DNA of 64,000 bases from Parasphingorhabdus sp. (GCF_965233695.1 NZ_OZ247497.1:2495277-2559276); one strand, 5' to 3'; shown: positions 36,218 to 64,000, counted from the first letter of the stretch. The notes: generated from the letters alone by a model not told the origin. Numbers and translations: made by a program.

Positions 36218-38557
36218 ATGCGCGTTCAAAAAGCGAGTCTAATAGCCCTTGCAGTAGCAAGCGGATTTGTAGTTCCAAGCGTTGCGGTTGCCCAAACATC
36301 TGAGGCTGCCGAAGCAGATGATGGCAATATCATTGTCGTAACAGCGCGTAATCGTGCTGAGAATATTCAGGAAGTGCCTCTCGCCATCACAGCGTTTGAC
36401 GCAGAAGACATATCCCGCCAGGCGATTCAGGAACTGGATGATGTTGCGCGCTTTACGCCAGGTTTCAGCTTTGAGGATTTCTCCGGCGGTATCGGCACAC
36501 CGGTTATTCGCGGACAGGCCCAAACACGCGTCACCGCTCTGGAATCGAATGTTTCAACCTTTTTGGACGGCATTTACATACCGCGCGCCTGGGCTGTGGA
36601 CCTCGGTACAACAAGTCTTCAGCGTATTGAGATCGTCAAGGGACCGCAAAGCGCGCGTTATGGACGCAACGCTTTTGCCGGCGCAATCAACTATATTCCA
36701 AGGAAAGCCGAGATTACGGGAGAGATTTCCGGCGAGATCGAGGGCACAATTGGGTCTGACGAGCGCTATGATATTGGCGGTTTTCTAAACTTCTCGGTCA
36801 ATGAATGGTTCGCCATTGCAGGTTCTTACGAATATTCATCGTTTGACGGCTCTTGGGAAAATGACCACCCGTTCGCCGACAGCCTGGACTTGGATCGCGG
36901 TACATCTGGCAATGTCGGTGGTCGGGACAATCAAGCCATTTCGGTTTCCGCAGCGTTCAAACCGTTGGACGGAGTACGCCTGGAAGCGTCCTACAATCAT
37001 TTTAACAGAAAAGAAGAAGCCCGCGCGAACCGCTATCTGGCGGAAGTTCTGGGTGATTTCAATTGTGGTTCCAATCGCAGCATTTTTGGCGTGGGCCCGA
37101 ATCCTGCGCTGATTTGCGGCGACTTGCCTGCACCGGGAGATTCAGTCATCGTCGACCCGCGGGCCTATGGTGTCCACTCAAAAACCGGCTTTTTCCGGGC
37201 CAATCTGGAAATTGACGTTTCTGATGCGCTGACATTCAGCTATTTGTTCGGCAACGTAAACGGCGATGTTGATATTGCGGTCAGCGGCGAACCGGAACCC
37301 ATCAATTGCGGAACGCTGGTTGCCGGGCGGTGTAATTTCCAGAATACACCGGTTGGCAGCATGGATTATGATTCCCATGAGGTACGGCTCAATTTTGACA
37401 ATTCGGGTCAGTTTCGTGGAGCAATCGGGATCTATTATTCCGATGGTACGGACATCACGACATTTACGAGCAACAATCTAAATCCGATTGTCAGTGCCGA
37501 TGATCCTTTTCCGGGCGATCCATTCGCCTTTCTTTTGGGAGACACCACCACCGACACCGAAATCAAATCGATTTTTGGTGAAATTCATTGGACATCGGCA
37601 AGTGGCGTGCTGCGCTTGGGCGCAGAAGGACGATATTCCGAGACCGAGATTACAGCAACGGACAATCGCAGAGCTTTAATATTGGGTGATACGTTTAAAG
37701 ATTTCGCGCCGCGCTTTACGGCCGAATATGATCTCAGTGATGAGAGTCTTCTTTTTGCCACGGTCGCAAAAGGGTCAAAGGCCGGTGGCTTCAACCCCAC
37801 AGCAATCGCTCCGGAGAACCAGGTTTTTGACAAAGAGACCAACTGGACCTTTGAAATTGGTTCCAAAAATACGTTTCTGGGCGGTGATCTTCGTCTCAAC
37901 GGATCGATATATTACACGGATTGGCGGGATGTGGTGATCAATTCTCCCGATCCGGATGCGACTGACCCGAATGCCACCGCAATTGCCCAAAATCTTGGTG
38001 GTGCGTCTATCTATGGTATCGAGCTTGATGCCTTTTATCAGATCACCGATAACCTGAGCATTGACGCGACTTTCTCGCATTCTGAAGCAACCTATGATGA
38101 TGGTACTATCGATCAGCGCTTTGCGCGGACACGTGGTACGCCGGGTACGCCCTTTTTCATCTCCGCACCTTGTGATGATGTGGTGTGTAACTCCAATGGC
38201 GATGTTGGCGGCAATGATATTGAACGTACGCCACCGACCCAGGCATCCTTTGGTATCCAGTGGGAGGGAGAAATCGGTTCCGGAGATAGCAATTATTATC
38301 TGCGGACGGATTTCAGCTATCAAAGCGACTTTTTCGCATCGACGGCCAATGTCGGGACAATTCCGGACCGCTTTCTGGTCAATGGCAGTGCAGGCGTTAC
38401 CTTCGGAAACTTTTCTGTAAATGCCTGGATACGCAATGCTTTTGACAAAAAATATGTGTCCAATGCTTTCGTTGTGGTTCTGCCCTTCGGTACCACCTAT
38501 GGTGAATTTTTCGGTGAGCGGCGCACATTTGGCCTGACAGGCAAAGTTAATTTCTAA
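36218..38557 (+). CDS. TonB-dependent receptor
   Basis: RBS GGAGG; signal peptide; VTARNRAENIQEVP, IVKGPQSARYGRNA; terminal Phe. Confidence 0.93.
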   Translation: MRVQKASLIALAVASGFVVPSVAVAQTSEAAEADDGNIIVVTARNRAENIQEVPLAITAFDAEDISRQAIQELDDVARFTPGFSFEDFSGGIGTPVIRGQAQTRVTALESNVSTFLDGIYIPRAWAVDLGTTSLQRIEIVKGPQSARYGRNAFAGAINYIPRKAEITGEISGEIEGTIGSDERYDIGGFLNFSVNEWFAIAGSYEYSSFDGSWENDHPFADSLDLDRGTSGNVGGRDNQAISVSAAFKPLDGVRLEASYNHFNRKEEARANRYLAEVLGDFNCGSNRSIFGVGPNPALICGDLPAPGDSVIVDPRAYGVHSKTGFFRANLEIDVSDALTFSYLFGNVNGDVDIAVSGEPEPINCGTLVAGRCNFQNTPVGSMDYDSHEVRLNFDNSGQFRGAIGIYYSDGTDITTFTSNNLNPIVSADDPFPGDPFAFLLGDTTTDTEIKSIFGEIHWTSASGVLRLGAEGRYSETEITATDNRRALILGDTFKDFAPRFTAEYDLSDESLLFATVAKGSKAGGFNPTAIAPENQVFDKETNWTFEIGSKNTFLGGDLRLNGSIYYTDWRDVVINSPDPDATDPNATAIAQNLGGASIYGIELDAFYQITDNLSIDATFSHSEATYDDGTIDQRFARTRGTPGTPFFISAPCDDVVCNSNGDVGGNDIERTPPTQASFGIQWEGEIGSGDSNYYLRTDFSYQSDFFASTANVGTIPDRFLVNGSAGVTFGNFSVNAWIRNAFDKKYVSNAFVVVLPFGTTYGEFFGERRTFGLTGKVNF

Positions 38558-38592
38558 TCGCTTGTGTCACAAAGCCTTTGGCTTCGTCACGC

Positions 38593-38626
38593 ATTGCCGG
38601 GCACCTTGGGGGAGGTGTCCGGCAAT
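38593..38626. terminator. Hairpin between convergent genes
   Basis: ATTGCCGGGCACCT / AGGTGTCCGGCAAT stem with one G-U pair. Confidence 0.7.
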
Positions 38627-38658
38627 TTGATTCTGATTTCTTGTTTCCGCGATTGTGC

Positions 38659-40998
38659 TCAACCCAAAAATAACTCAGCCGCTGCATCGATAATCGCGTT
38701 CTCGTCTATCCGGTAGGCATTGTAGAGATCAGGCAAGTCTCCGGTCTGGCCAAAGCGATCGGTGCCGAGAGGACTGACCTTCATGCCTCGCACAGCACCC
38801 AGCCAGGACAGGGCTGAAGGAGAGCCATCCAGAACCGTGATCAAGCCTGCATCCGGTGACAATTCGTCCAGCATTAGCTTGGCATGACAGGCCTCTTTAT
38901 CTTTGCCTTGCCAGCGCGCGGCACATTGGTCTGACCATCCGCGATGGAGCAGGTCGGGTGATGTCACGTTGAGCAATCCCAGCCCGGGGATATCCGTGAC
39001 CAGACTGTCATAAGCCTGCAGCACTTCCGGCGCTATCGCTCCGGTAAAGGCAATGGCTGCCTCCGCGCCTTTGGTGGGTCTGCGTAACCAATAGGCACCC
39101 TTGAGTGCGTCCGCTTCCCAGCTGTCATTGTCACGCTCTATTTGCGCGATCGATCGTGTGCTGAGGCGCAAATAAACGGAACTGCCGTCTTCGCGCTGCA
39201 TATGATCAAAGGCCCAGCGCATCATCAACGCCACTTCGTCAGCCCAGACCGGCTCGAAATAGACCAGGCCAGGTTGCCCCATCCCGATCAATGGTGTGTT
39301 GATCGATTGATGGGCGCCGCCCTCCGGCCCTAGTGTCAGGCCGGACGGTGTCCCGACCAGCAGAAAACGCGCGTCCTGATAACAGCCATAGTTTAGCGCA
39401 TCGAGGCCGCGGGCGATGAAGGGATCATAGACCGTCCCCACCGGCAGTAAACGCGTTCCGAAATGCGGGGCCGTCAGTCCCATCGACGTGAGCATCAGGA
39501 AGAAATTATTCTCCGCTATGCCCAATTCGATATGCTGACCTGCGCCATGCGCGGACCATTTTTGCGCGGAAGGAATTTTGGCTTGTTGGAAAACATCGGC
39601 TACTTCCTGACGCCGAAAAAGACCGCGCTGGTTCACAAAGGCACCGAGATTGGTTGTCTGGGTAACGTCGGGAGCCGTCGTAACGATCCGGTCGCCGATT
39701 TCTTCTCCCGATTTTGCAAGATCCAGAAGAACTTTGCCAAACGCAGCCTGGGTGGATTGTTCCGCACCCGCTGGTACTTCGAACCGATCCGGGACGACGA
39801 CCGGAGCGGCCTTTGGCTCCGGTTTCTGCCTTGCAAGCGCGCTTTTTTCGACGAAAGCTTTCAGTTGTGCTGCCGCATTGTCGCCCAGTCCGCCATAGGC
39901 TTCCCACTCAGCGCCTTGCTCGATTCCCAGGCTGTTGCGATAACCCTCCATCTGCGTCGGGTTCATCATGCCGGAATGATTGTCTTTGTGACCCGCCAAG
40001 GGCAGGCCAAAGCCCTTCACGGTATAGGCAATGAACAGTGTTGGTCGCTCATCATCACAGGCATCAAATGCATCCGACAGCGTTTCGACACAGTGACCGC
40101 CGAGATTGGTCATCAGATCGGCAAGTGCATCATCATCGAAACCGGCGAGCAGCTTTTTCACATTGGGCTTGCCGCCGATATCGTCAATCAGCCGCTTGCG
40201 CCATGCTTCGCCACCTTGATAGGTCAGCGCGGCAAAATCCGCATTGGGACAATTGTCTATCCATTGTTCGAGTGTCTTGCCGCCGGGTTTCTTGAATGCC
40301 GCCTGTTGCCGCTTGCCGTATTTCAAGGTGACCACGCGCCAGCCGCAGGTTTCGAAAATGTCATCAAACCGGCGGAACATGCGGTCTGCGGTCGTGCTGT
40401 CCAGCGACTGCCGGTTGTAATCCACAACCCACCAGCAATTGCGGATATCATGCTTGTAGGCCTCGATCAGGCACTCATAGATATTGCCTTCGTCCAGCTC
40501 GGCATCACCCATCAGGGCGATCATCCGGCCGGCATCGCTTTCTTCCATTTGCCCATGGGCGATCAGATAATCTTGCATCAAACTGGAAAAAGCGGTCACC
40601 GCCACACCAAGGCCGACCGACCCGGTGGAAAAATCGACCGGGATGGTGTCTTTGGTCCGCGACGGGTAGCTTTGCACACCGCCGAGGCCGCGAAAGCGTT
40701 CCAGCTTTTCCTGACTCTGATTGCCGAGCAGATAGTGGATGGCATGGAGCACAGGGCCAGCATGGGGCTTGACCGCGACTTTGTCCTGCGGTCGCAACGC
40801 ATGAAAATATAGCGCCGCCATGATCGCGGTTATCGAGGAACAGCTCGCCTGATGACCGCCGACTTTCAGCCCGTCACGCTTTTCCCGGATGTGATTGGCA
40901 TTGTGCACCGTCCATGACGACAGCCACCGCAACCGTGATTCCAGCAGTTCCAGCATCTGCATTTCATTTGATATCTTACTGTTCGTTTTTGTGGTCAT
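38659..40998 (-). CDS. AceE-like / transketolase-like ThDP-dependent 2-oxoacid dehydrogenase E1
   Basis: KVGGHQAS, STGSVGLG, ThDP motif GDAELDEG, ELGIAENN, EGGAHQS. Confidence 0.85.
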   Translation of the reverse strand: MTTKTNSKISNEMQMLELLESRLRWLSSWTVHNANHIREKRDGLKVGGHQASCSSITAIMAALYFHALRPQDKVAVKPHAGPVLHAIHYLLGNQSQEKLERFRGLGGVQSYPSRTKDTIPVDFSTGSVGLGVAVTAFSSLMQDYLIAHGQMEESDAGRMIALMGDAELDEGNIYECLIEAYKHDIRNCWWVVDYNRQSLDSTTADRMFRRFDDIFETCGWRVVTLKYGKRQQAAFKKPGGKTLEQWIDNCPNADFAALTYQGGEAWRKRLIDDIGGKPNVKKLLAGFDDDALADLMTNLGGHCVETLSDAFDACDDERPTLFIAYTVKGFGLPLAGHKDNHSGMMNPTQMEGYRNSLGIEQGAEWEAYGGLGDNAAAQLKAFVEKSALARQKPEPKAAPVVVPDRFEVPAGAEQSTQAAFGKVLLDLAKSGEEIGDRIVTTAPDVTQTTNLGAFVNQRGLFRRQEVADVFQQAKIPSAQKWSAHGAGQHIELGIAENNFFLMLTSMGLTAPHFGTRLLPVGTVYDPFIARGLDALNYGCYQDARFLLVGTPSGLTLGPEGGAHQSINTPLIGMGQPGLVYFEPVWADEVALMMRWAFDHMQREDGSSVYLRLSTRSIAQIERDNDSWEADALKGAYWLRRPTKGAEAAIAFTGAIAPEVLQAYDSLVTDIPGLGLLNVTSPDLLHRGWSDQCAARWQGKDKEACHAKLMLDELSPDAGLITVLDGSPSALSWLGAVRGMKVSPLGTDRFGQTGDLPDLYNAYRIDENAIIDAAAELFLG

Positions 40999-41074: not shown

Positions 41075-41091
41075 TGTCCATCTGATGGACA
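41075..41091. promoter_or_regulatory. Palindromic operator candidate, site 2
   Basis: TGTCCATC-T-GATGGACA, a perfect palindrome in the divergent E1/ALDH intergenic region. Confidence 0.6.
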
Positions 41092-41202: not shown

Positions 41203-42717
41203 ATGCAAGAGATCAATCTTTCCATCCCCCGGCCTGGTCCGGCTGCGACAAAGTTTCTGGAAAAAGGCATATATTCCAATCTGGTAAATGGCGAATGGCT
41301 GTCCTGCCAAAGCGGTGAAACCTTTGATACGCTCGATCCCGCAACCGGTGAAGTGATCGGAAAGCTTCAGAGATCGGGGGCAGGGGATGTCGAAAAGGCG
41401 GTCCGCGCGGCGCGCAACGCTTTTGACAACGGATCATGGTCCAAAATAACCCCGATGGAACGCAGCCGGATCCTCTGGAAAATAGCGGACCTGTTGGAAG
41501 CCAATATTGACGAACTGGCGGAACTGGAAACGCTGGATCAGGGAAAAGCGCTATATGTCGGGCGCTGGGCAGAAATTCCCGGTGCAGTGAACCAGTTTCG
41601 ATATTTTGCCGGCCTGGCGACCAAGATCGAGGGCGCAACCATTCCCACGTCGATCAATTACCAGCCCGAGGGCAAGGAGGTTTTCGCCTATACCCAGAAA
41701 GAACCGGTGGGCGTGGTCGGTGCGATTGTACCGTGGAATTCGCCTCTGGTTCTCACCGCAATGAAGCTCGCTCCTGCCCTGGCGGCCGGGTGTACGGTGG
41801 TGCTGAAGCCGGCGGAGAATACATCACTGACAGCAGTAAGGCTGGTTGAACTGATGCAGGAAGCCGGGCTGCCCGACGGCGTGATAAATCTGGTAACGGG
41901 ATTCGGGCATGAGGCCGGCGCTGCTTTGGCCGAACATAAGGATGTCGATAAAATCGCGTTTACCGGTTCGACGCAAACCGGTCGCGCCATCATGAATGCG
42001 GCGCAAGGCAATTTGAAACGGATAACATTGGAGCTCGGCGGAAAGTCGCCGGTCATCATCATGCCTGATGCCGATATTGATGCGGCTATTCAAGGCGCTG
42101 CCAATGCGATATTCTTCAATGGCGGACAGGTGTGTATCGCCGGATCCCGCCTATACTGCCACCGCTCGATCATGGATAAAGTGGCCGAGGGGATTGCTGC
42201 GATTGGCGGACAGATCAAGCTCGGCCACGGTCTTGATCCGGAAACGCAAATGGGGCCGTTGGTGTCGAAAGAACATAGCGCCAAAGTTGCCGCCTATATT
42301 GCGGACGGCAAATCGGCTGGCGCCTCGATATTGTCGGGGGGCGAAACAGGTGGTCCCAATCAGAGTTTTGTCGAACCGACCGTGATCACGGATGTGACGC
42401 CGGATATGCGGATTGTCCGCGAAGAAATTTTCGGTCCAGTGGTCGTTGTGACCCCGTTTGACGATACAGAGGAAGTTGTCGCTGCTGCGAACGATAGCGA
42501 CTATGCGCTGGCAGCTGGCGTCTGGACCGAAGGCCTTTCGAACGGCATGCGTATGGCTAATCGCCTGAAAGCCGGAACGGTCTGGGTCAATGGCCATGCC
42601 ATGTACGATGCGTCGCTTCCCATTGGCGGGATGAAACAGTCGGGCTGGGGCCGCGATAGTGGGCAGGCTGCTCTGGAAAACTATCTGGAGCTAAAGACCG
42701 TCTGCGCGATCATCTGA
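41203..42717 (+). CDS. NAD(+)-dependent aldehyde dehydrogenase
   Basis: PWNSP, KPAENT, FTGS, LELGGKS, catalytic Cys in GQVCIAG, EEIFGP. Confidence 0.95.
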   Translation: MQEINLSIPRPGPAATKFLEKGIYSNLVNGEWLSCQSGETFDTLDPATGEVIGKLQRSGAGDVEKAVRAARNAFDNGSWSKITPMERSRILWKIADLLEANIDELAELETLDQGKALYVGRWAEIPGAVNQFRYFAGLATKIEGATIPTSINYQPEGKEVFAYTQKEPVGVVGAIVPWNSPLVLTAMKLAPALAAGCTVVLKPAENTSLTAVRLVELMQEAGLPDGVINLVTGFGHEAGAALAEHKDVDKIAFTGSTQTGRAIMNAAQGNLKRITLELGGKSPVIIMPDADIDAAIQGAANAIFFNGGQVCIAGSRLYCHRSIMDKVAEGIAAIGGQIKLGHGLDPETQMGPLVSKEHSAKVAAYIADGKSAGASILSGGETGGPNQSFVEPTVITDVTPDMRIVREEIFGPVVVVTPFDDTEEVVAAANDSDYALAAGVWTEGLSNGMRMANRLKAGTVWVNGHAMYDASLPIGGMKQSGWGRDSGQAALENYLELKTVCAII

Positions 42718-43652: not shown

Positions 43653-44432
43653 CTAAAATTCTTCCATCAGGCGGCCGAATCCGCTGACCTGATCGGTAAT
43701 GCCATTTTGGCGCAGCGCATTCCAATAGGTTGCGGTGTTGATCGCGATGACGGGCTTGCCCAGATACATTTCTGCTGCTGCCGCCAAGCGCGTCATAGAC
43801 AGGTTGGTTCCAACCTGGACGAGTGCATCAACATCATCGCCATCAAGAGCCCGCAATTCTTCTCGCAATGTCTCTGTTGGTACTTGCGCAATCGAAGTCC
43901 AGCTGGGACAGCGCAGGCAAGTGTCTCGGACGACTTCAACACCATGATCGGCCATGAAATGGGCAACATGCGCATTGGCTGACGGGTAGTAAGGTGACAG
44001 CACCACAATCTTTTTGATCCCGCCATAGGCTTTGAAAGCCTCGATCAGCGATTGGGATCCCGTGCATAATTTCAGACCCGCCTCGCTCTCGATATTCTCG
44101 CGCCATTTCTGCGCGCCTTCGGCCCCACCGTAAAAGGTGACGGCGGACATGCCCATGACCAGATAGTCGGGATTGCAGGTCAGGACACCGCGTACAGCAT
44201 CCAGCGTGTTGCGGGAAATTTCCAGCGTGCCTGCCATGAAAGTTTCGTCCGAGATTGCCTGCGCGTCTTCCACGACAATTCGGCTATAGTGATTGGTCAC
44301 ACCGCGCACACGCAAATCATCAAAATCCGGCTGGACGACAGTGTTGGTAGACGGCCCCAGAACCCCGAACAATCTGCGATAGCCAAGAGCGTCGGGATCA
44401 GGGCGGGGTTTTGGATTAGACTTCAGGGGCAT
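43653..44432 (-). CDS. Asp/Glu racemase superfamily protein (maleate isomerase / arylmalonate decarboxylase-like) lacking both catalytic Cys
   Basis: GPSTNTVVQPD, LSPY, KPVIAINTA; GMSA and VGTNL at the usual Cys positions. Confidence 0.82.
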   Translation of the reverse strand: MPLKSNPKPRPDPDALGYRRLFGVLGPSTNTVVQPDFDDLRVRGVTNHYSRIVVEDAQAISDETFMAGTLEISRNTLDAVRGVLTCNPDYLVMGMSAVTFYGGAEGAQKWRENIESEAGLKLCTGSQSLIEAFKAYGGIKKIVVLSPYYPSANAHVAHFMADHGVEVVRDTCLRCPSWTSIAQVPTETLREELRALDGDDVDALVQVGTNLSMTRLAAAAEMYLGKPVIAINTATYWNALRQNGITDQVSGFGRLMEEF

Positions 44433-45746: not shown

Positions 45747-45763
45747 TATCCGTCGAGTGGATA
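45747..45763. promoter_or_regulatory. Palindromic operator candidate, site 3
   Basis: TATCC-GTCGAGT-GGATA; shares the 10-mer AAACTATCCG with site 1; divergent intergenic region. Confidence 0.62.
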
Positions 45764-46807: not shown

Positions 46808-47632
46808 GTGACTCTGGCCAAAAAATTGCGCACACGATTGCAGCAACGAGAAATTCTCGTCGCTCCGGGCGTATATGATGCCTTCAGCGCCTATCGGGCG
46901 GAAGTCGCTGGCTTTGAGGCGATATTTGTTTCCGGTTCTGCGCTCGCCGCTGCGCATTTGGCACGCCCCGATATCGGGTTGCTCTCCGCGAGCGAGACAG
47001 CTGACATTGCCGCGCGCATTGCCGATCGCATCGGGATTCCGATGCTGGTTGATGCAGATCAGGGCTTCGGCAATGCCTTTGCGGTTGGCCGTACCGTCAG
47101 GATGCTGGAGCGGGCCGGAGCCTCTGCCATTCAAATTGAAGACCAGCAGGAAATAAAGCCGGCCGACAGCCCGCTTTCCCGCCCCCTTATTCTTCAGGAC
47201 GCCATGGTTGATAAAATCAAGGCGGCCCGCGATGCGCTAACCGATGCGGACGTAATGATCAGCGCGCGCAGCGATGCCATGGCCACAGAAGGGTTTGAGC
47301 GCGCATTGGAACGTGCCCATGCCTATGTCGAAGCGGGCGCTGATATGATCTTCGCGGAATCTTTGACCACGCGGGCACAGATGGCAGAATTTGTCCGGCA
47401 GATGGACGGCAAAGCTCCCTTGCTGCATAACCTGCTCCGCGACACGGATGAAGTGACCGACGCTCACATGGCGCAGCAGATTGGATATAGCGTCGCGCTA
47501 TTCCCTGGCACTGCGCTCGGCGCCGTCGGTGCGGCATTGGACCGGGCTTTTGCGGATCTCAAAAGCGCGCCGGAACTGCTTGGAGGTGAACCAAAAATCG
47601 ATCGCATCGGCGCGGATGCCTATTTGAAATAG
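46808..47632 (+). CDS. Isocitrate lyase / PEP mutase superfamily protein lacking the catalytic CGH loop
   Basis: APGVYDAFSA, VDADQGFG, IEDQ, ARSDA, AGADMIFAE; no Cys in the protein. Confidence 0.87.
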   Translation: MTLAKKLRTRLQQREILVAPGVYDAFSAYRAEVAGFEAIFVSGSALAAAHLARPDIGLLSASETADIAARIADRIGIPMLVDADQGFGNAFAVGRTVRMLERAGASAIQIEDQQEIKPADSPLSRPLILQDAMVDKIKAARDALTDADVMISARSDAMATEGFERALERAHAYVEAGADMIFAESLTTRAQMAEFVRQMDGKAPLLHNLLRDTDEVTDAHMAQQIGYSVALFPGTALGAVGAALDRAFADLKSAPELLGGEPKIDRIGADAYLK

Positions 47633-55261: not shown

Positions 55262-56228
55262 CGGTAATCCCCTTGTTTTCGGCCTCGGCCATCCGCCAGA
55301 TCGCATGCGCGGCGGCGAGATCCTGCGAGGCGACACCGAGTGATTTGTACATCGTAATCTGGTCATCATTCTGACGGTCTGGAGCGTTGCCATTGATCAC
55401 TTCGCCGATTTCACCGACAATATGAGCATCCGTTATAACACCCCGCTCAATCGCACCGAGCAATTCACCGGCTGCTGCCATCGCTGCGTCACGATAGTCG
55501 ACGTAGAAGCGTGATTTGGAAACTGCTCCGTCATCAACTTCAGCAGTCGTGGGAATGGCGGAGCCGACGAGATTAATATGCTGGCCGGCCTTTAAATCGG
55601 CTGCAAACAGAACTGCCGTCTTGGCAGAAGTGGTGGTGCAGATAATGTCCGCATCCGCCGCGGTCTCGGCGACCGTTTTCCACGCAATCGTCTCTACGCC
55701 GGTCTCATCAGCTACCTTGGCGGCAAAGGCACTGGCGCGCTCTGTATCACGGCCCCAGACATTGATATTATCAATGTCCCGCACCGCCCGCATGGCATGC
55801 ACATGGCGCATAGCCTGTTCGCCGTTGCCGATAATCGCCAGTCTGGTTGCGTTCTTGCGCGCCAGAATGTCCGTTGCGAGCGCGCTTGCTGCGGAGGTCC
55901 GGATCGCAGTTAGCGAGGACCCCTCGATCATCGCCAGCGGAATGCCCTTGACGCTATCAAATAGCATCACCATCCCGACATGGGTGCCGAGCGGGTCGTC
56001 ATGCGGGCGATCATATTTGCAAACCAGCTTGATACCAAAGCAAGCGGGTTCTCCCAATGTACCGGGCATGATAGCCAGTTTTCCGGGCGCATCGGGGATC
56101 GGCATGAATTGCCGGATCGGAAGGGAGACGTTGCGGCGGGAGGTCGCGGACATCGCTTGTCGCATAACGTCGACACAGGGCCTAACCGGCAAAAGCCGCT
56201 CAACATCGGATTGAGTAACAATCCGCAT
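55245..56228 (-). CDS. Ornithine cyclodeaminase / mu-crystallin family protein (imine reductase-like)
   Basis: GIKLV, LTAIRTSAASA, IIGNGEQA, ADIICTTT, YKSLGVASQDL. Confidence 0.9.
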   Translation of the reverse strand: MRIVTQSDVERLLPVRPCVDVMRQAMSATSRRNVSLPIRQFMPIPDAPGKLAIMPGTLGEPACFGIKLVCKYDRPHDDPLGTHVGMVMLFDSVKGIPLAMIEGSSLTAIRTSAASALATDILARKNATRLAIIGNGEQAMRHVHAMRAVRDIDNINVWGRDTERASAFAAKVADETGVETIAWKTVAETAADADIICTTTSAKTAVLFAADLKAGQHINLVGSAIPTTAEVDDGAVSKSRFYVDYRDAAMAAAGELLGAIERGVITDAHIVGEIGEVINGNAPDRQNDDQITMYKSLGVASQDLAAAHAIWRMAEAENKGITVDLMD

Positions 56229-56737: not shown

Positions 56738-57547
56738 CTATTGCGCCAAGAATTCCAGTACGCGTTTGTTATAGATCTCGGTCGATACAATCGGGCTGAA
56801 GTGCCCGCCGCGGTCGAGCAGGTGGGTCTCCGCTCCCTGGATCAAATCGCCCATTTCCTGGGTAAAACCGGGCGGTGTGATTTGATCATCCATGGACCCG
56901 ATGCATAATGTCGGTGTGGCAATCTCATGCAGACGGCTGCGCAAGTCATGCGTGTAGACTGCGTTAATTCGCGACAATTCCACTTCCAATCCCGGAAATG
57001 CCGCAAGCCGTTCTTCCATAAAAGCTCGTGCCGATGTCATTTGCGGCTGCAAATGAGAACTCGGCATGGCGAGATAAGTGCCCATAGTGAGATAAGCGAG
57101 CGGCCCGCAGCTTATCAGTATCTCTCGCCGCGTCCGGAAAAGCTCGGTCAAATAAGTGTCAGGACCGGCCCAGCTGCATGAAAGCACGAGCTTTGTAAGC
57201 CGCGCCGGTTGATCAAGTGCGATATGCTGTCCGATTGCACCGCCAGTGGAATGGCCAACAAGGCTTGCTTTCTTGATCTCCATGGCATCCATCAATGCGA
57301 GCACATCTTGCGCCATATGTTCGGCACCATAGACAACCTTGTCGGGCGTGCTGTTACCGCAACCGCGATGGTCGAACGTGATAACCCGAAAATCTTTGGC
57401 AAAGTCCTGGACCTGATTGTTCCAGAAGGCTCCGCGCCCTCCTAGGCCGGCAACCAGCAAGAGGTCTGGCCCATTGCCGGTGATCTCGACGTGAATTTCC
57501 GCGTCACCGACATCAATGTGCTGTATATCGGTCGGGATCACACTCAT
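56738..57547 (-). CDS. Alpha/beta hydrolase, RutD-like, with Ser nucleophile
   Basis: ATG at 57547 overlaps the ALDH stop; GLGGRGAFW, FDHRGCG, GHSTGG, GGH. Confidence 0.85.
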   Translation of the reverse strand: MSVIPTDIQHIDVGDAEIHVEITGNGPDLLLVAGLGGRGAFWNNQVQDFAKDFRVITFDHRGCGNSTPDKVVYGAEHMAQDVLALMDAMEIKKASLVGHSTGGAIGQHIALDQPARLTKLVLSCSWAGPDTYLTELFRTRREILISCGPLAYLTMGTYLAMPSSHLQPQMTSARAFMEERLAAFPGLEVELSRINAVYTHDLRSRLHEIATPTLCIGSMDDQITPPGFTQEMGDLIQGAETHLLDRGGHFSPIVSTEIYNKRVLEFLAQ

Positions 57548-59025
57548 AGGGCAGTGAATACCGTTTTGGTGTTGAGGTAGTTTTCCAGGCCGTCTTTGCC
57601 GTTTTCCCGGCCAATGCCTGACTGTTTGTAACCACCGAGCGGCACATCCCAATCCGCTCCCATGACCGCGTTGATACACATGATACCGGCTTTGATCTTG
57701 CCGACCATACGGTGCGCGGTAGAGATATTTTGCGTCCATACGGCTCCGGCCAGACCGTATTGGGTGTCGTTGGCTAAGGCGAGCGCTTCTTCCTCAGTCT
57801 TGAAACTCTGAGCCACCACCACCGGGCCAAAGATTTCTTCCTGAACAATTTTCATGTCATTTCTGGTCTGATCGATAACCGTTGGCTCAAGGAAATAACC
57901 GCTTTCGCCATGACGCACGCCGCCCGATGCAATATGTGCACCTTCTTTTTGGCCTTGTTCGATATAGGCGCTGACCCGCTCGAACTGTTTGGCGGATACC
58001 AAGGGGCCCATGGTGCTCTCTTCATCCAGACCGTTGGTAAGATTCATCGATTTACCTACGGCGGCGATGCCATTGACAACTTCGTCCTTAATATCTTCAT
58101 GCACATAGATGCGTGAGGGTGCGGTACAGGTCTGACCGCTGTTGAAGAATATGCCCATGGCAGATGCTGGAATGGCTTTTTCAAGGTCCGCATCGGGCAT
58201 GATGATGTTGGGCGATTTTCCGCCAAGCTCCAGCGTGACTTTCGTCAGGTTCTCGGCCGCCGCATGGGCGATAATTTTGCCTGTTGTGGTAGAGCCGGTA
58301 AATGCAATTTTATCAATACCGGGATGATTGATCAGACTATTGCCAACCGTATGGCCGTATCCGGTCACGATATTCAATACGCCTTCGGGAAGACCCGCTT
58401 CCAATGCCAGTTCCCCCAAGCGCAGTGCAGAAAGCGATGTGTCTTCGGCCGGTTTCAATATGGCGGTACAACCAGCGGCCAATGCAGGACCAAGTTTCAT
58501 GGCCGCCATCACCAACGGGTAATTCCACGGTACAATCAGTGCAACTACACCAACAGGCTCCTTCAGCGTGTAGACGTGATGATCGCCCGGCAAATTTATG
58601 GTGTGGGTTGTTCCCTGAATTTTGTCGGCCCAGCCCGCATAATAGCGGAAGGCCCCGATGGAGGCAAAAACATCACCGCGGGCAAAGTTAATCGGCTTGC
58701 CATTATCGAGTGTTTCCAGCTGCGCCAGTTCTTCGGCATGCGCCTCCATCAAATCCGCGATCTTGTGAATTATGCGTGAGCGCTCGCCAGGCTTCATCTC
58801 CGGCCAGGCGCCGCTTTCAAATGCCTCTCGTGCGGTCGAAACGGCCTCGTCAATATCGGCATCGCTCGCATTGCCAATTCCGGAAATCCGATGGCCATCG
58901 GCAGGGTTTATGACGTCAATCAGCGCGTCACTGCCAGCGTCCTTCCACTGACCGCCAATTAGTAATTTCTGGTCCCTGGCGATGAATGATGTTGTTTCGG
59001 ATGCGAGGGTGATCACGGCCATCAA
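57544..59025 (-). CDS. NAD(+)-dependent aldehyde dehydrogenase
   Basis: PWNYP, KPAEDT, FTGS, LELGGKS, GQTCTA, EEIFGP. Confidence 0.95.
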   Translation of the reverse strand: MMAVITLASETTSFIARDQKLLIGGQWKDAGSDALIDVINPADGHRISGIGNASDADIDEAVSTAREAFESGAWPEMKPGERSRIIHKIADLMEAHAEELAQLETLDNGKPINFARGDVFASIGAFRYYAGWADKIQGTTHTINLPGDHHVYTLKEPVGVVALIVPWNYPLVMAAMKLGPALAAGCTAILKPAEDTSLSALRLGELALEAGLPEGVLNIVTGYGHTVGNSLINHPGIDKIAFTGSTTTGKIIAHAAAENLTKVTLELGGKSPNIIMPDADLEKAIPASAMGIFFNSGQTCTAPSRIYVHEDIKDEVVNGIAAVGKSMNLTNGLDEESTMGPLVSAKQFERVSAYIEQGQKEGAHIASGGVRHGESGYFLEPTVIDQTRNDMKIVQEEIFGPVVVAQSFKTEEEALALANDTQYGLAGAVWTQNISTAHRMVGKIKAGIMCINAVMGADWDVPLGGYKQSGIGRENGKDGLENYLNTKTVFTAL

Positions 59026-60450: not shown

Positions 60451-60467
60451 TAACCGTCAGCCGGATA
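60451..60467. promoter_or_regulatory. Palindromic operator candidate, site 4 (one mismatch)
   Basis: TAACCG-TCAGC-CGGATA in the divergent MFS / oxidoreductase intergenic region. Confidence 0.55.
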
Positions 60468-60523: not shown

Positions 60524-62104
60524 ATGGATGCCGACATAGCAAAAGGACAAGAAAGGCAAGGCTACAATGGCCTGGCTGCCATTTGTGGTACGGATGCGGT
60601 GACTACCGATGAAGCCCGCCTGCGCTACTTTTCGCAGGACCTGTTTTTTGAAGGTATCCTGCCGCTTGCAATTGTGAGTCCGGCAACCACCGATATGGTT
60701 GTCAGGATAGTTCAGTTCTGCCGAGCACAGGGTTGTGCAATTTTTCTGCGCGGTGGAGGCATGTCTTACACAAAGGCTTTCCAGCCTACATCTGCAAACG
60801 CCATCATGCTTGATTTTTCCAGGCTATCAGCCATTCGTGAGATATCGGTTGAGGATGGCCACGTCACGGTGGAAGCGGGCTGCACATGGGCTGCACTGGA
60901 TGAAGCACTTGCCAAGCATGACAGGCGCGCACGGTTTTGGGGACCCATGTCGGGGCGATCGGCAACAATTGGTGGCTCCATGAGTCAAGGGACTGTGACT
61001 TTTGGCTCTGGCACCAATGGTGCTTCGGCGAATGCCGTCAAAAGCTTCGAGGTGGTGACCGGTGCCGGTGAGCTGTTACACAGCGGCTCCGATGGTACGA
61101 CAGGAACACGGCCATTTAACCGCAATTTCGGGCCGGATTTGACGGGTATATTCGCCAATGATGCCGGGGCGCTGGGAATCAAGACAGCGGTGACCCTCGA
61201 AATTGAACCACGCCCGGCGCAGGTTAGCGGTCTGTCCTTTGCCTATGATGATTTCGATGCCATGGCGCAGCTGTTTTCCGATCTGTCCATGCGCCGTCTG
61301 TCATCGGAGATGATTGCAATGGATGGCGACGTCGCGCGACAAAATTCGGGCGCGCCTGATCTCTTGGAAGACGCAAAAGCGATGTGGCGTATTGGCAAGG
61401 CGGCCGGAAATCCATTGTCAGCCGTCGGCCGAATGTTTCGCATTGCAATGAGTGGGCGGCGATTTCTGGACAAGGCAAAATATACTGCGCATTTTGTGGT
61501 GGAAGGCCGGGACAAAGCAGAGCTTGAAAGCCGGATAAATGCCATTCGCGGATTTGCCAAATCAGGGGAGGAGATCGTCAATACCGTGCCGTTGATGACG
61601 CGCGCCGATCCGTTTCCGGTTCTGCCAGTGACGCATCCTGACGGCCGCCGGATGTTGCCGATCCATGGGGTGTTTCCTCAATCAGCATTGCAAGGTTTTC
61701 ATCAGGATTACCTATCCCTCAAGGCCAGTTTTGCCGAACGGATGACAGAGACGAACGTCACTATTGCGGAATTTTTTGCCGGTGTGGCGGGCATTGGATT
61801 GCTTTACGAACCCGTATTCTACTGGCCCGACAGCCTGTACGAATATCATAACCGCCTTACGCCTGATTATCTTGAAGGAAAAATGCCGGAGTTTCCGGAA
61901 AACCTGACGGCGCGGGAATTGGTCGGGGAGTTCGTGTCGGCTTTCAATGCGTTGGTGCATCAGCACGGCGGAACCCATTTTCAGATCGGGCGGCTCTACC
62001 CCTATACGGAAAATCGCGAAAGCGGTGCAGCCATGTTGCTTCGCGATCTCAAAACGTCACTGGATCCGGATAACATTATCAATCCGGGAGCGTTGGGCTT
62101 GTGA
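60524..62104 (+). CDS. FAD-binding oxidoreductase (PCMH/VAO-type, GlcD-like)
   Basis: RBS AAGGGA; RGGGMSY, ATIGG, VVTGAG, PDLTG, C-terminal LDPDNIINPG. Confidence 0.87.
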   Translation: MDADIAKGQERQGYNGLAAICGTDAVTTDEARLRYFSQDLFFEGILPLAIVSPATTDMVVRIVQFCRAQGCAIFLRGGGMSYTKAFQPTSANAIMLDFSRLSAIREISVEDGHVTVEAGCTWAALDEALAKHDRRARFWGPMSGRSATIGGSMSQGTVTFGSGTNGASANAVKSFEVVTGAGELLHSGSDGTTGTRPFNRNFGPDLTGIFANDAGALGIKTAVTLEIEPRPAQVSGLSFAYDDFDAMAQLFSDLSMRRLSSEMIAMDGDVARQNSGAPDLLEDAKAMWRIGKAAGNPLSAVGRMFRIAMSGRRFLDKAKYTAHFVVEGRDKAELESRINAIRGFAKSGEEIVNTVPLMTRADPFPVLPVTHPDGRRMLPIHGVFPQSALQGFHQDYLSLKASFAERMTETNVTIAEFFAGVAGIGLLYEPVFYWPDSLYEYHNRLTPDYLEGKMPEFPENLTARELVGEFVSAFNALVHQHGGTHFQIGRLYPYTENRESGAAMLLRDLKTSLDPDNIINPGALGL

Positions 62105-63285
62105 ACCAGGGACGCATGATTGATGCAAACACCAAAATTGCGATTGTTGGCGGCGGTATTGGGGGATTGGTGGCTGGTATCGCGCTTCAGAAAGCCGGGT
62201 TTAATCCAGTCATATATGAACGTGCGCCGGAATTTGGCGAAGTGGGGGCAGGTATTTCCATCTCACCCAATGCGACGCTCGGTTTGGAATCTCTCGGCTT
62301 CACTGATTATTTGAATGCCAATGCCAATGAGCCCTTGGAACAGCGTCTGTATCATGGCGAAACCGGGGAATTGCTCAAGACATTTGACCGCCGGGATTGC
62401 CGTGAGACATACAAAGCTGCCTATTGTCAGCTACACCGGGCTGACTTGCTCAATATGTTGATAGATGCGTTTGGCCGAAGCAATTGCGCAATGAATCACG
62501 GGCTTGCGGACGTTTATAGCCGCGTAGATGGTGTCATTCTGACCTTTGAAGATGGCAGCACCGCTGAAGCGGATATTGTCATCGCCGCAGATGGATTGCG
62601 GTCGGTCATCCGTGACAGCCTATTCGATTCCGAACCACCGGAATTTAGCGGGCATGTCGCCTGGCGCGCATTGGTGCCAGCGGAGAAACTGGGACCGAAA
62701 TCCGTCGAAAGGCTGAATATAAATCATCTGGGTACGGGGCGGAACATTGTCAGCTATCCCGTGCGCGGGACTGAACTGGTCAATATTGTGGCGCTGACCA
62801 AAGCTGAAGACTGGGCTGAAGAAAGCTGGAACGCGAAGGCGGAGAAGAGCGAGTTGGCGGCGCATTATGAAGGTTGGACGGACTATGTGATGGAGCTGTT
62901 GGAGGCTATACCCGGAGATGCTCTATATCGCTGGGGCCTGTTCATTCGTAAACCGCTTGAGAATTGGGTTAGCGGCCGGACCGCTTTGCTGGGCGATGCT
63001 GCCCACCCGATGCTCCCCTATATGGGGCAGGGCGCATCCTGTGCGATTGAAGATGGAGTCATTCTCGGTCGCGCTTTTGCGGTTGCGGAAACACCGGGCC
63101 AGGCACTGAAAATATATGCCGAGAGCCGAATAGAACGCGCTTCTCTCCTGCAATCAGAATCCAATCTCGGCGGCGATCGGTTGCAAGCCATTGATCCCTA
63201 TGCCTTTCGAGATACCCCGATCAAGAATGAGGACGCACTGGGTATTTTTGCTTATGATCCCGCCACCGTACCCCTGATAAAATAG
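62101..63285 (+). CDS. Group A FAD-dependent monooxygenase (salicylate hydroxylase / 6-hydroxynicotinate monooxygenase-like)
   Basis: GGGIGG, EVGAGI, HRADL, ADGLRS, GDAAHPMLPYMGQGA. Confidence 0.9.
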   Translation: MNQGRMIDANTKIAIVGGGIGGLVAGIALQKAGFNPVIYERAPEFGEVGAGISISPNATLGLESLGFTDYLNANANEPLEQRLYHGETGELLKTFDRRDCRETYKAAYCQLHRADLLNMLIDAFGRSNCAMNHGLADVYSRVDGVILTFEDGSTAEADIVIAADGLRSVIRDSLFDSEPPEFSGHVAWRALVPAEKLGPKSVERLNINHLGTGRNIVSYPVRGTELVNIVALTKAEDWAEESWNAKAEKSELAAHYEGWTDYVMELLEAIPGDALYRWGLFIRKPLENWVSGRTALLGDAAHPMLPYMGQGASCAIEDGVILGRAFAVAETPGQALKIYAESRIERASLLQSESNLGGDRLQAIDPYAFRDTPIKNEDALGIFAYDPATVPLIK

Positions 63286-63287
63286 AT

Positions 63288-64000
63288 TCAGACCGGCTTG
63301 GTCGCGATCAGGGATTGCAGAAAGTCATTGGAAACCGCTGGCCCCTGTTTCACTTCGAAACCGGCCGCTTCCAATATCCCTTTGAAATCGCTTGCGACAA
63401 AAGCGGGTGAATAAGGTTCGCAATTATCGCGACTGTCATTGTCGATCATGAATCGATAGCCGGCGGGCACCTGGCCTTTGTCGTTATTGGGAAATTCAAA
63501 GATCGAGAACACACCGCCGGGTCGTATGATCCGGAATAGCTCGGAGATAATTTCTTTCATCTTTTTGACTGGCACTTCATGGAACAGGATATAGGCCAGC
63601 ACCATATCGAAATGGTCATCGGGATAGCCGCTATCTTCCGCGAGCGCCTGCTTGAAATGAACATCCTTGCCACGTTGAACAGCGCGCATGTGGGCATAGC
63701 GGATAAGCGGCAGGCCCACGTCAAGACCCCAAACTTCTGCGTCCGGATAGAGATCTTTCAAGACCGTTGTGGACTGTCCGATGCTGCAGCCTACATCCAG
63801 AATGCGCTCGATTTTTCCGTCGGCAGGCCTGGTCGTTTTCTCGGCATGCTCGGTATGCATCTCGTCCTGGTCATTAAAACCTTCGTAGAAAATTTTGGTG
63901 CCGTAATGAAAGACAGCGCCGCCCAATGGATCATCGGTGTAGCCGCCCGGCTGACAATGAATTTCACAGCGGGTATAAGTAGGTGGTTCGAACGATGGAT
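63288..64000 (-). CDS. Class I SAM-dependent methyltransferase; 5' end outside the window
   Basis: Open frame to the window edge (PSFEPPTYTRCEIHCQPGGY...); ILDVGCSIG, AYILFHE, IRPGG. Confidence 0.87.
   Translation of the reverse strand, partial: PSFEPPTYTRCEIHCQPGGYTDDPLGGAVFHYGTKIFYEGFNDQDEMHTEHAEKTTRPADGKIERILDVGCSIGQSTTVLKDLYPDAEVWGLDVGLPLIRYAHMRAVQRGKDVHFKQALAEDSGYPDDHFDMVLAYILFHEVPVKKMKEIISELFRIIRPGGVFSIFEFPNNDKGQVPAGYRFMIDNDSRDNCEPYSPAFVASDFKGILEAAGFEVKQGPAVSNDFLQSLIATKPV

Follow-up and report, generated by a model that had tools for sequence, protein, structure and literature searches.

A putative IclR-type catabolic regulon in Parasphingorhabdus with paired methyltransferase and helical-hairpin genes

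The described systems closest to the gene cluster considered here are the TonB-linked aromatic regulons of sphingomonads and the IclR regulons (Pca, Pob and Mhp), the para-diol routes (p-nitrophenol/hydroquinone, pentachlorophenol with PcpB/PcpC, gentisate and homogentisate), and the nicotinate/nicotine pathway, which runs through 2,5-dihydroxypyridine and maleamate (NicC/HspB, NicX/Hpo, NicD/Nfo, NicF/Ami and NicE/Iso). The cluster lies at positions 36218-64000 of a 64,000-nucleotide stretch of Parasphingorhabdus sp. (GCF_965233695.1, NZ_OZ247497.1:2495277-2559276), which is called the window below. It appears to be a TonB-linked, probably IclR-controlled catabolic regulon of a familiar kind with uncharacterised components. 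It shares with the regulons just named a dedicated TonB receptor, uptake by carriers of the major facilitator superfamily (MFS), an IclR-type regulator and a palindromic operator in divergent promoters, the regulator's own included; its enzyme set, operator sequence and presumed effector are different. The reading that we prefer, and to which we give a probability of about one half, is a single regulon that spans ~36 kb, has more than 30 genes, is probably under IclR control and degrades a conjugated algal or sponge compound by way of a para-diol.

Gene set, conservation and shared operator

A reading of the window from sequence alone had listed about 24 genes, among them an 11-gene operon on the minus strand. 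Both were reproduced when the cluster was read again with a listing of open reading frames (ORFs) and with Pfam and NCBIfam scans of the window proteins, which gave 24 genes of the families that had been named. Compared with gene calls in relatives, the longest ORFs are too long at the 5' end for several genes, and the likely starts are 57547 (ABH), 60524 (PCMH), 60398 (MFS1) and 40998 (E1). The genes and the short names used for them are as follows (lengths in amino acids, aa).

36218..38557, plus strand: TBDR, TonB-dependent outer-membrane receptor, 779 aa, with signal peptide, Plug and beta-barrel domains
38659..40998, minus strand: E1, homodimeric-type thiamine diphosphate E1/transketolase-family protein (Pfam), 779 aa from Met10; far below the NCBIfam aceE cut-off
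41203..42717, plus strand: ALDH1, aldehyde dehydrogenase, 504 aa; Aldedh 592 bits
42722..43639, minus strand: PuuE-like hydrolase of the polysaccharide-deacetylase fold, 305 aa; PuuE 140 bits, cut-off 425
43653..44432, minus strand: Amdase-like protein of the Amdase/EutA/maleate-isomerase superfamily, 259 aa; Amdase in Pfam, EutA 76 bits, cut-off 318
44432..45637, minus strand: FMO1, group-A flavin monooxygenase (PF01494), 401 aa, PnpA/HspB-like
45837..46799, plus strand: PhyH, PhyH-family Fe(II)/2-oxoglutarate dioxygenase, 320 aa, MysH-like
46808..47632, plus strand: PEPmut, protein of the phosphoenolpyruvate (PEP)-mutase/isocitrate-lyase (ICL) fold, 274 aa; prpB 227 bits, cut-off 354
47642..48379, plus strand: GST1, glutathione S-transferase, 245 aa
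48376..49062, plus strand: GST2, glutathione S-transferase, 228 aa, YfcG/YghU-like; PRK13972 193 bits, cut-off 332
49070..50266, minus strand: Blac2, beta-lactamase-fold serine hydrolase, 398 aa, lipoprotein with LAAC lipobox, SxxK and YxN motifs
50270..51217, minus strand: DLH, exported chlorophyllase/dienelactone-hydrolase-like alpha/beta hydrolase, 315 aa, with Sec signal peptide and GHSYG motif
51214..51504, minus strand: small96, 96-aa helical-hairpin protein, ATGA-coupled to MT346
51501..52541, minus strand: MT346, class I S-adenosylmethionine (SAM) methyltransferase; invariant His-rich motif HFHRT...YVHGEIIH, conserved helical domain of 160 aa at the N-terminus
52538..53965, minus strand: MFS2, cation symporter of the MFS_2/GPH family, 475 aa; MFS_2 275 bits
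53972..55261, minus strand: Blac1, beta-lactamase-fold serine hydrolase with lipobox IGGC, SxxK and YxN motifs
55245..56228, minus strand: OCD, ornithine cyclodeaminase/mu-crystallin family protein, 327 aa
56228..56728, minus strand: cupin, monocupin (Cupin_2), 166 aa, with metal motif HxH...E...H
56738..57547, minus strand: ABH, alpha/beta hydrolase, 269 aa from Met65, RutD/PcaD-like, with GHSTG motif
57544..59025, minus strand: ALDH2, aldehyde dehydrogenase (Pfam and NCBIfam), 493 aa
59022..60398, minus strand: MFS1, MFS_1 transporter of the anion:cation symporter type, 458 aa from ATG 60398 (the longest ORF begins at GTG 60410)
60524..62104, plus strand: PCMH, FAD_binding_4 flavoprotein of the VAO/PCMH/GlcD superfamily, 526 aa
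62101..63285, plus strand: FMO2, group-A flavin monooxygenase (PF01494), 394 aa, in the clade of decarboxylative ipso-hydroxylases
63288..64000, minus strand: MT2, C-terminal two-thirds of a 363-aa MT346 paralogue, cut by the window end

The eleven operon genes run in the order MFS1, ALDH2, ABH, cupin, OCD, Blac1, MFS2, MT346, small96, DLH, Blac2, and read from the sequence their junctions are overlaps of 1-17 nt or gaps of 3-9 nt. MFS1 and ALDH2 overlap, ALDH2 and ABH meet at ATGA, a 9-nt gap containing GGAGG separates ABH from the cupin gene, and the cupin gene joins OCD at TGATG. OCD overlaps Blac1 by ~17 nt, provided that TTG 55261 is the Blac1 start (ATG 55306 and ATG 55393 are the alternatives). 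A 6-nt gap follows between Blac1 and MFS2, then an ATGA at each of MFS2/MT346, MT346/small96 and small96/DLH, and a 3-nt gap between DLH and Blac2. The eleventh gene is thus the 96-aa ORF at 51214-51504, which has a 4-nt ATGA overlap at either end. The rest of the cluster comprises a coupled minus-strand trio (FMO1, Amdase-like, PuuE-like), a coupled plus-strand quartet (PhyH, PEPmut and the two GST genes) and a plus-strand pair (PCMH and FMO2), besides the single genes.

MT346 served as the anchor for a comparison of 76 genome loci with 10-kb flanks, onto which all window proteins were mapped. These loci belong to Sphingomonadales, Hyphomonadaceae, Halieaceae and sponge-symbiont Gammaproteobacteria, and the cluster genes recur in them in shuffled orders. 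Seven Parasphingorhabdus-like genomes keep every gene within reach; MT346 of P. marina is 87% identical and the gene order of P. cellanae is unchanged. Erythrobacter, Altererythrobacter, Porphyrobacter and some Novosphingobium have most of the genes in other orders, with the TBDR gene, for example, within the operon or after the PuuE-like gene. The Hyphomonadaceae keep the receptor, the esterases, MT346, the small ORF, MFS2, the PuuE-like and Amdase-like proteins and one ALDH. On a Halieaceae contig MFS2, MT346, the small ORF and PCMH adjoin the five-gene unit OCD-cupin-ABH-ALDH2-MFS1, and gammaproteobacterial metagenome-assembled genomes (MAGs), mostly sponge-associated and including Ca. Foliamicus, carry both methyltransferases, PCMH, FMO2, PhyH, an ALDH, ABH and MFS1. 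Several families outside the window are also associated with the cluster: a flavocytochrome-c/TcuA-like FAD_binding_2 protein (20 loci), CoA-transferases, short-chain dehydrogenases/reductases, and LysR and IclR regulators. Re-association across classes in shuffled orders is the pattern expected of a functional link.

The second line of evidence is a degenerate palindrome, TRTCCR-N5-YGGAYA, with the core TATCCG-N5-CGGATA. Four sites stand in divergent promoter regions.

36072..36088: O1, TATCCGATAGGCGGATA, FadB-TBDR region, 146 nt upstream of the TBDR ATG; exact match
41075..41091: O2, TGTCCATCTGATGGACA, E1-ALDH1 region; exact match to the degenerate palindrome
45747..45763: O3, TATCCGTCGAGTGGATA, FMO1-PhyH region; exact match, overlapping a promoter-like site
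60451..60467: O4, TAACCGTCAGCCGGATA, MFS1-PCMH region; one mismatch to the core

The degenerate pattern has three exact matches in the 64 kb (36072, 41075 and 45747), all in cluster promoters, against 0.02 expected; the promoter-like sequence that overlaps O3 is TTGCCA-17-GATATT at 45737-45765. The related loci and the window, 1.47 Mb together, contain 40 sites that differ from the core at no more than one position, where simple arithmetic gives ~3 by chance, and nearly all of them lie in the PhyH/FMO1, PCMH/MFS1, upstream-of-TBDR and Amdase/ALDH1-PEPmut promoter regions. In 21 related loci a core site with at most one mismatch precedes PhyH by 72-89 nt (8/21 match the degenerate pattern exactly), the equivalent of O4 is kept in loci L001-L003, L016, L039, L076, L079 and L080, and core-like sites are also present in the Hyphomonadaceae Hyphomonas and Ponticaulis.

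Orthologues of an IclR regulator adjoin the cluster in Porphyrobacter, Algimonas and Novosphingobium, where four loci of the Novosphingobium mangrovi/profundi/BW1 group (L027, L028, L031 and L033) have tandem copies. The best models for this regulator are PRK09834-type and PcaR/PcaU/PobR, all with scores below their cut-offs. In the congeneric locus L080 the operator precedes the IclR start by 31 nt and recurs between a CoA-ligase-like gene and a small ORF, and in PCMH/MFS1. The palindrome is therefore common to the cluster promoters and to the regulator's own gene, as in IclR-type regulons, and the simplest reading is an autoregulated IclR regulon in which the regulator would bind this operator. 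Because the operator precedes an IclR gene that lies beyond the window in the congener, the regulon extends past the right end of the window.

These observations bear on two results that would have spoken against a single cluster, namely that the genes are not conserved together or are not regulated together. The genes recur, rearranged, in 76 loci of four lineages, and a common cis-element stands at four cluster promoters and is absent elsewhere in the window. The cross-class conservation and the operator in four promoter regions together argue for one functional unit rather than a chance neighbourhood. DNA nearly identical to the cluster is present in sequencing runs labelled algae, phycosphere, biofilm and sediment metagenomes, and distant orthologues occur in sponge-symbiont MAGs; of RNA-seq data, two plastic-biofilm metatranscriptomes only contain ~10% of the words.

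Enzymes of the cluster and known pathways

None of the 24 window proteins reaches an NCBIfam equivalog cut-off, nor do several neighbouring proteins taken from the related loci; for ten proteins the names in the 90% clusters are those of generic families only. The earlier family labels are confirmed in Pfam, and since no equivalog cut-off is reached, 'RutD-like' and 'PuuE-like' denote a fold or family and carry no functional assignment.

TBDR has only sub-threshold NCBIfam matches, and its homologues of 44-59% identity take varying positions in 25 related loci; MFS2 scores 214 bits with TIGR00792 (cut-off 231). The three exported hydrolases carry one Sec signal peptide and two lipoboxes, with the serine-hydrolase motifs intact in 3/3. 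Taken together with the TonB receptor and the two MFS carriers, these exported enzymes point to a conjugated substrate.

For both aldehyde dehydrogenases phenylacetaldehyde dehydrogenase is the top-scoring NCBIfam model (for ALDH1, StyD, 622 bits against a cut-off of 850). PnpA is p-nitrophenol 4-monooxygenase and HspB is 6-hydroxy-3-succinoylpyridine 3-monooxygenase, and the characterised relatives of both flavin monooxygenases exchange a para substituent for a hydroxyl group, giving para-diols. Against the PDB, FMO1 matches PnpA with 174 bits and HspB with 163 bits, the next best being 98 bits, and it also matches the UbiH family in NCBIfam. FMO2 matches TrlE (8rqh) with 218 bits, NicC with 181, vanillate 1-hydroxylase with 175 and 4-hydroxybenzoate 1-hydroxylase with 174; TrlE is an ipso-substituting hydroxylase-decarboxylase (PMC11110157). 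These similarities suggest that FMO1 and FMO2 carry out ipso-hydroxylation to a para-diol. In PCMH the FAD domain is the sole part that aligns to solved structures.

The cupin has weak PDB matches to 5-nitrosalicylate 1,2-dioxygenase (E 1e-5) and gentisate dioxygenases (E 1e-3), which makes it a candidate ring-cleaving dioxygenase, and it is 86-95% identical throughout Sphingomonadales. The closest solved relative of PhyH is MysH (9c9n, E 2.4e-25, 92 bits over ~230 residues; the next match has E 0.006). WHCD of PhyH aligns on WHND of MysH (HxD), as does the distal His. MysH converts disubstituted mycosporine-like amino acids (MAAs) into palythines, which is understood as oxidative N-dealkylation, and its likeness suggests the same type of reaction for PhyH. 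PhyH stands out by its conservation, with identities of 96-97% for most congeners and of 61-65% for the gammaproteobacterial (sponge/Foliamicus) loci. PEPmut has a methylisocitrate lyase match of 149 bits. Lyases of the PEP-mutase/ICL fold carry the motif KRCGH; PEPmut reads EDQQEIKPADS at this position and has thus lost the catalytic Cys motif K-x-C-G-H. This Cys-less protein accompanies the two GSTs, in Sphingorhabdus sp. 109 as well, and the regulon has a second, Cys-bearing paralogue of the same fold beyond the window (L080:6742-7614).

Several proteins may act on C-N bonds. The PuuE-like protein matches 1z7a (109 bits) and the allantoinase PuuE 3cl6 (103 bits) in the PDB and is a candidate hydrolase of a cyclic amide, an imide or an amide. 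OCD scores 252 bits with the OCD family model PRK08618 (cut-off 417) and 241 with the Pyr2C/Pip2C reductase PRK06141 (cut-off 322), and is a candidate cyclic-imine reductase or cyclodeaminase. The Amdase-like protein matches maleate isomerases and arylmalonate decarboxylases equally weakly, with 35-38 bits, and ABH matches RutD with 179 bits (cut-off 238.5) and PcaD with 137 (cut-off 256). Between Parasphingorhabdus and Erythrobacter the PuuE-like and Amdase-like proteins and the cupin are 85-92% identical, the esterases and small96 only 42-52%. In most Erythrobacter/Altererythrobacter loci the PuuE-like protein is 88-92% identical, and the P. marina copy is more divergent, at 71%. The high conservation of these three proteins hints at strong constraint or at gene exchange between genera.

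The hallmark of the system is two paralogous pairs, each of a methyltransferase and a hairpin protein. MT346 matches Methyltransf_25/11/31 and has an intact SAM motif, LDMGCSSG; its AlphaFold2 model has a pLDDT of 92 and a Foldseek probability of 1.0 to many methyltransferases. The glycine-rich motif and the Rossmann-like fold mark it as a class I SAM-dependent methyltransferase, which may methylate O, N, C or S. The Foldseek relatives are generic class I enzymes only (3dtn, CysG/BelI, DsyB, SgvM, PEAMT) and give no clue to the substrate, and the best family matches of the methyltransferases are UbiE/MenG, RquA, BioC, arsenite and phosphoethanolamine/phosphatidylethanolamine (PE) N-methyltransferases. 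Small96 belongs to no Pfam family, and a search of 1.84 billion proteins gave 153 distant representatives of it at E<=1e-3. Its AlphaFold2 model (pLDDT 86.5) consists of two long helices and has no structural relative in Foldseek. A homologue adjoins MT346 in most of the 76 loci, and in 37 loci when called ORFs are clustered.

The second pair straddles the window end. The MT2 frame is open to base 64000, its full-length homologues have 363 aa, and it is 29% identical to MT346, so that of the two methyltransferases listed from the sequence both exist and the second is incomplete here. The small ORF upstream of MT2 in relatives encodes a 38-50% identical paralogue of small96. Some related loci have extra copies of the triad MFS2-methyltransferase-small ORF. 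In Novosphingobium and Hyphomonas (L027, L028, L031, L033, L038, L046) two to three MT346-type copies each stand beside their own MFS2-like carrier or small ORF, which suggests a family of related substrates. Because the two genes are translationally coupled and duplicated together, MT346 and small96 are presumed to be partners in a putative heteromeric enzyme. No characterised counterpart of such paired proteins is known.

Set beside the para-diol routes, the cluster has a probable ipso-hydroxylase leading to a para-diol (FMO1, from the PnpA score given above), GSTs together with ring chemistry, a cupin-fold candidate for ring opening, a hydrolase for a fission product and an IclR-type regulator. 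It differs from them in its 166-aa monocupin, where gentisate dioxygenase is a bicupin of ~350 aa, in GSTs far under the maleylpyruvate/maleylacetoacetate isomerase cut-off (maiA 47 and 28 bits against 171) and in having no maleylacetate reductase. Among the 24 proteins Pfam finds no bicupin dioxygenase, HmgA or FAH domain of the gentisate/homogentisate set.

The nicotinate/nicotine pathway also offers likenesses. Homologues of both hydroxylase types are present, coupled operons here contain an alpha/beta hydrolase, an amide-hydrolase candidate and a maleate-isomerase-superfamily protein, and the anion-type MFS carrier resembles NicT. The nicotine pathway has the layout hspB-iso-ami, and FMO1 is similarly followed by isomerase-like and amidase-like genes. 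Among the PDB matches of the two hydroxylases, NicC stands below TrlE for FMO2 and HspB below PnpA for FMO1, and no equivalog cut-off is reached. A 2,5-dihydroxypyridine 5,6-dioxygenase domain of the NicX/Hpo type occurs in 0/24 proteins (Pfam, NCBIfam), the only candidate dioxygenases among them being the monocupin and PhyH, and Pfam finds no member of the isochorismatase-type maleamate amidase family in 36-64 kb. The Amdase-like protein reads VGTN at the expected position of the second catalytic Cys of the two-cysteine maleate isomerases. The cluster differs further in the absence of a molybdenum hydroxylase and in its methyltransferases, esterases, GSTs and MysH-like enzyme, which are foreign to that pathway.

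Other systems resemble single elements of the cluster. MysH is the sole significant solved relative of PhyH, with aligned iron ligands. MysH itself stands in a cyanobacterial biosynthetic cluster with MysA-D, whereas the context of PhyH is catabolic, and neither the window nor the related loci examined contain MAA genes (DDGS/EEVS, a MysB-type O-methyltransferase, ATP-grasp or nonribosomal-peptide-synthetase-like genes). A MysH-like dioxygenase outside MAA biosynthesis has no characterised counterpart. The methyl-ester 'handle' systems (BioC/BioH of biotin synthesis, the trans-aconitate methyltransferase Tam and the fungal methoxyhydroquinone route with its methyl-ester esterase) likewise combine SAM methyltransferases with esterases, several of which are co-encoded here; weak BioC, Tam and BioH matches occur in NCBIfam, and the likeness is one of logic only, with no sequence membership. 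For ectoine utilisation (Eut/Doe) the EutA and EutC matches fall far short (EutC 178 bits against 472) and EutB, DoeA and DoeB are absent; for the Rut pyrimidine pathway RutD is below its cut-off and RutA, B, C, E and F are absent. The homarine operon homABCDER encodes a FAD protein (HomA), HomB, a peptidase (HomC), an ALDH-like protein (HomD) and HomR (PMC13236597), and the composition so described is unlike that of the cluster. The statement that the gene set matches no complete known pathway therefore holds: no equivalog cut-off is reached, the cluster names are generic and the homarine operon is composed differently. A literature search on MAA catabolism, a catabolic tropone monooxygenase and a comparable sphingomonad cluster gave nothing relevant beyond the biochemistry of TrlE and MysH.

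Proposed route and its alternatives

By combining these similarities, a possible course of degradation can be described. A conjugated (ester- or amide-linked) algal or sponge compound would pass the outer membrane through the TonB receptor and be deconjugated in the periplasm by the three exported serine hydrolases, and the released pieces would be imported by the GPH-type and anion-type MFS carriers. A side chain might then be oxidised by the FAD_binding_4 flavoprotein and subsequently by the two aryl-aldehyde-type ALDHs. FMO1 (PnpA/HspB-like) and FMO2 (TrlE/NicC-like) would convert the ring into a para-diol of the hydroquinone or 2,5-dihydroxypyridine type, the MysH-like dioxygenase would strip an N-substituent by oxidative dealkylation, and the monocupin would open the ring. 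Unsaturated, N-bearing fission products may be handled by the GSTs and by the RutD/PcaD-like, PuuE-like, Amdase/EutA-like and OCD-like proteins. The lyase, alcohol dehydrogenase, TcuA-like flavoprotein and short-chain acyl-CoA ligase encoded beyond the window could deliver the fragments to central metabolism. The two methyltransferase and hairpin pairs would methylate an intermediate, either as a transient carboxyl- or O-methyl 'handle' that is cut by an esterase, or as an N-methylation that is undone by the dioxygenase.

The gene set as a whole agrees with a catabolic reading, since it contains a TonB receptor and two importers, three exported hydrolases, ALDHs and flavoenzymes that hydroxylate rings. 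The nearest relatives of the enzymes and the PcaR/PobR-like regulator suggest a para-hydroxy-aromatic or a hydroxypyridine, so that the set points to a conjugated substrate of this kind, a para-diol route and additional C-N chemistry. The sequence-only reading had proposed breakdown of a large, probably nitrogen-heterocyclic natural product. It is likely that the genes form one catabolic system; the size ('large') and the class ('nitrogen-heterocyclic') of its substrate are still guesses. Sphingomonad TonB receptors also serve small aromatics, which bears on the size. A nitrogen heterocycle is plausible in view of the PuuE-like, OCD-like, MysH-like and NicC/HspB-like proteins; against it, the two monooxygenase clades also act on phenols (PnpA, vanillate and 4-hydroxybenzoate 1-hydroxylases), and the defining 2,5-dihydroxypyridine enzymes are absent. 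Since the gene set is widespread in marine Sphingomonadales, Hyphomonadaceae, Halieaceae and sponge symbionts and its DNA appears in algal, phycosphere and biofilm runs, it probably handles a common, uncharted component of marine dissolved organic matter, and marine bacteria living on algae and in sponges probably use the regulon for the import and breakdown of a conjugated aromatic or N-ring compound. The operator and the candidate IclR regulator make the substrate directly testable.

Several observations weigh against a single para-diol regulon. All enzyme assignments lie below the family cut-offs. The link of the cupin to ring-cleaving dioxygenases is weak (E 1e-5 to 1e-3). The IclR gene lies beyond the window, and its binding to the operator is inferred only. 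Methylation by SAM is unusual in catabolism, and the proposed route does not require it. No cupin, FMO1 or GST gene is found within +-10 kb in the gammaproteobacterial (sponge/Foliamicus) loci, so that a para-diol route is not the whole story there. Among recognisable window genes, Novosphingobium loci have within +-10 kb the core only (TBDR, esterases, methyltransferase, small protein, MFS and IclR), and the core is thus possibly self-contained in function.

An alternative is that the locus is an island of separate pathways (an ester/methyltransferase core and OCD-cupin-hydrolase, PuuE/FMO1 and PhyH/GST modules), each with its own, ecologically linked substrate and sharing a regulator for convenience. 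The core does stand alone in Novosphingobium, the gammaproteobacterial loci pair methyltransferases with PCMH, FMO2 and PhyH and have no esterases, and Sphingorhabdus sp. 109 has PEPmut-GST-GST and OCD-cupin-ABH with no methyltransferase or esterases in the 18-kb stretch seen. We nevertheless consider such an island unlikely, as the common operator precedes every transcription unit, here and in other genera, and the modules join again repeatedly, in unrelated orders and across classes; a modular route for one compound family would give an identical picture.

The need for two methylations in a degradative system is the main unexplained point. A tentative reading, to which we also give a low probability, is a new two-subunit enzyme, composed of a methyltransferase with a His-rich N-terminal domain and a ~100-aa hairpin protein and present as two specialised pairs. 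It would serve a 'methylate-to-degrade' route for an abundant algal or sponge metabolite, in which methylation by SAM activates or protects the compound and the MysH-like dioxygenase or the esterases later strip the methyl or alkyl group; the substrate might be, for example, a pyridine or pyridinium compound, an MAA or a (halo)phenolic conjugate.

The same unexplained methylations are the reason for retaining a non-catabolic reading, that of scavenging and tailoring or of detoxification, in which a compound is imported, deconjugated and methylated or hydroxylated. The product might be useful to the cell, as a quinone-like cofactor or a lipid head group carrying a methyl would be, or harmless, for example a halophenol, tropolone or quinolone that has been O-methylated. 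The methyltransferase matches listed above and the UbiH match of FMO1 agree with this, the MFS transporters may export, and around the Novosphingobium core no enzymes of downstream catabolism can be recognised within reach. Enzymes typical of ring-fission routes are, on the other hand, present (two ALDHs, a lyase, an acyl-CoA ligase, GSTs and hydrolases), a core biosynthetic enzyme is absent and the IclR-type regulator is of the aromatic-catabolism kind, all of which makes this reading rather improbable.

Least probable is a non-aromatic cyclic amidine or enaminone substrate (an MAA or an ectoine-like solute), from which the MysH-like enzyme would remove an N-carboxymethyl group and whose ring the cupin, OCD and the EutA-like protein would open and reduce: algae and sponges are rich in MAAs, for which no catabolic pathway was found in the literature, MysH is the one significant solved relative of PhyH, the cupin has a weak Ectoine_synth match in Pfam, EutA is the best NCBIfam match of the Amdase-like protein and OCD matches EutC, but all Eut matches are far under the cut-off, no DoeA/EutD-type hydrolase is present, the regulator resembles those of aromatic catabolism, and two ipso-hydroxylating monooxygenases and aryl-aldehyde-type ALDHs would have no purpose on such rings.

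Extent of the regulon and its neighbours

The cluster had been described as 28 kb ending at 64000, which is too short, as it runs ~7-8 kb further in close relatives. The right flank was read from two relatives (L079, L080), a contig of 98% identity and a Parasphingorhabdus MAG of 83%. Beyond 64000 these contain the rest of MT2, preceded by a 90-111-aa ORF, which is the small96 paralogue mentioned above. This ORF diverges from an operon for an acetate/propionate-CoA-ligase-like enzyme (ACS), a PEP-mutase/ICL-fold lyase with the motif K-I-C-G-H, a Zn-alcohol dehydrogenase and a TcuA-like FAD_binding_2 flavoprotein. In the 83%-identical MAG, whose contig extends further, an IclR gene follows, and the small-ORF/ACS region is one of those that carry the operator. 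The simplest reading is a regulon of ~36 kb and >30 genes, of which the window contains the left four-fifths.

On the left, the E1 gene had been counted with the cluster. The gene is present, and its membership is doubtful, because it is conserved at 78-93% identity throughout Sphingomonadales and because another Parasphingorhabdus (L081) has it near a thiolase-thioesterase-ligase-FadB block like that of the window, with no cluster beside it. E1 may thus be a backbone rather than a cluster gene. In Sphingorhabdus sp. 109 E1 is followed by E2 beside PEPmut-GST-GST and OCD-cupin-ABH, in a Hyphomicrobiales MAG (L043) it stands beside DLH-MT346, and in Sphingobium it accompanies beta-oxidation genes with E2 directly after it. 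In the window no E2 gene adjoins E1. A hairpin with a 15-bp stem (38593..38626), the best terminator-like site of the scan, separates E1 from the convergent TBDR gene and is likely a bidirectional terminator. Scans for Rfam families and tRNAs found none in the window.

Further left, 25209-35830 encodes a LuxR-family regulator, a second TonB receptor (883 aa), a thiolase, an acyl-CoA thioesterase II, an acyl-CoA ligase and FadB, and looks like a block for beta-oxidation of lipids or side chains. Membership of FadB, the acyl-CoA ligase, the thiolase and the thioesterase (29.7-35.8 kb) in the cluster was considered and set aside as unproven: they are absent beside the cluster elsewhere and form a genus backbone with E1 in the Parasphingorhabdus whose E1 has no cluster near it. 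O1 nevertheless sits in the FadB-TBDR divergent region, which also holds the FadB promoter.

The segment 10023-17185 encodes a DUF6607 protein between a TonB receptor and ABC transporter genes (for a solute-binding protein, a fused permease and an ATPase); it has the look of an uptake locus of its own, of the TonB-plus-ABC type, perhaps for iron. The segment 1123-9686 encodes an ECF sigma factor, a FecR-like anti-sigma factor, a 1208-aa TonB receptor (STN, CarboxypepD_reg) and a 966-aa M16 peptidase, and is a cell-surface-signalling uptake locus unrelated to the catabolic cluster.

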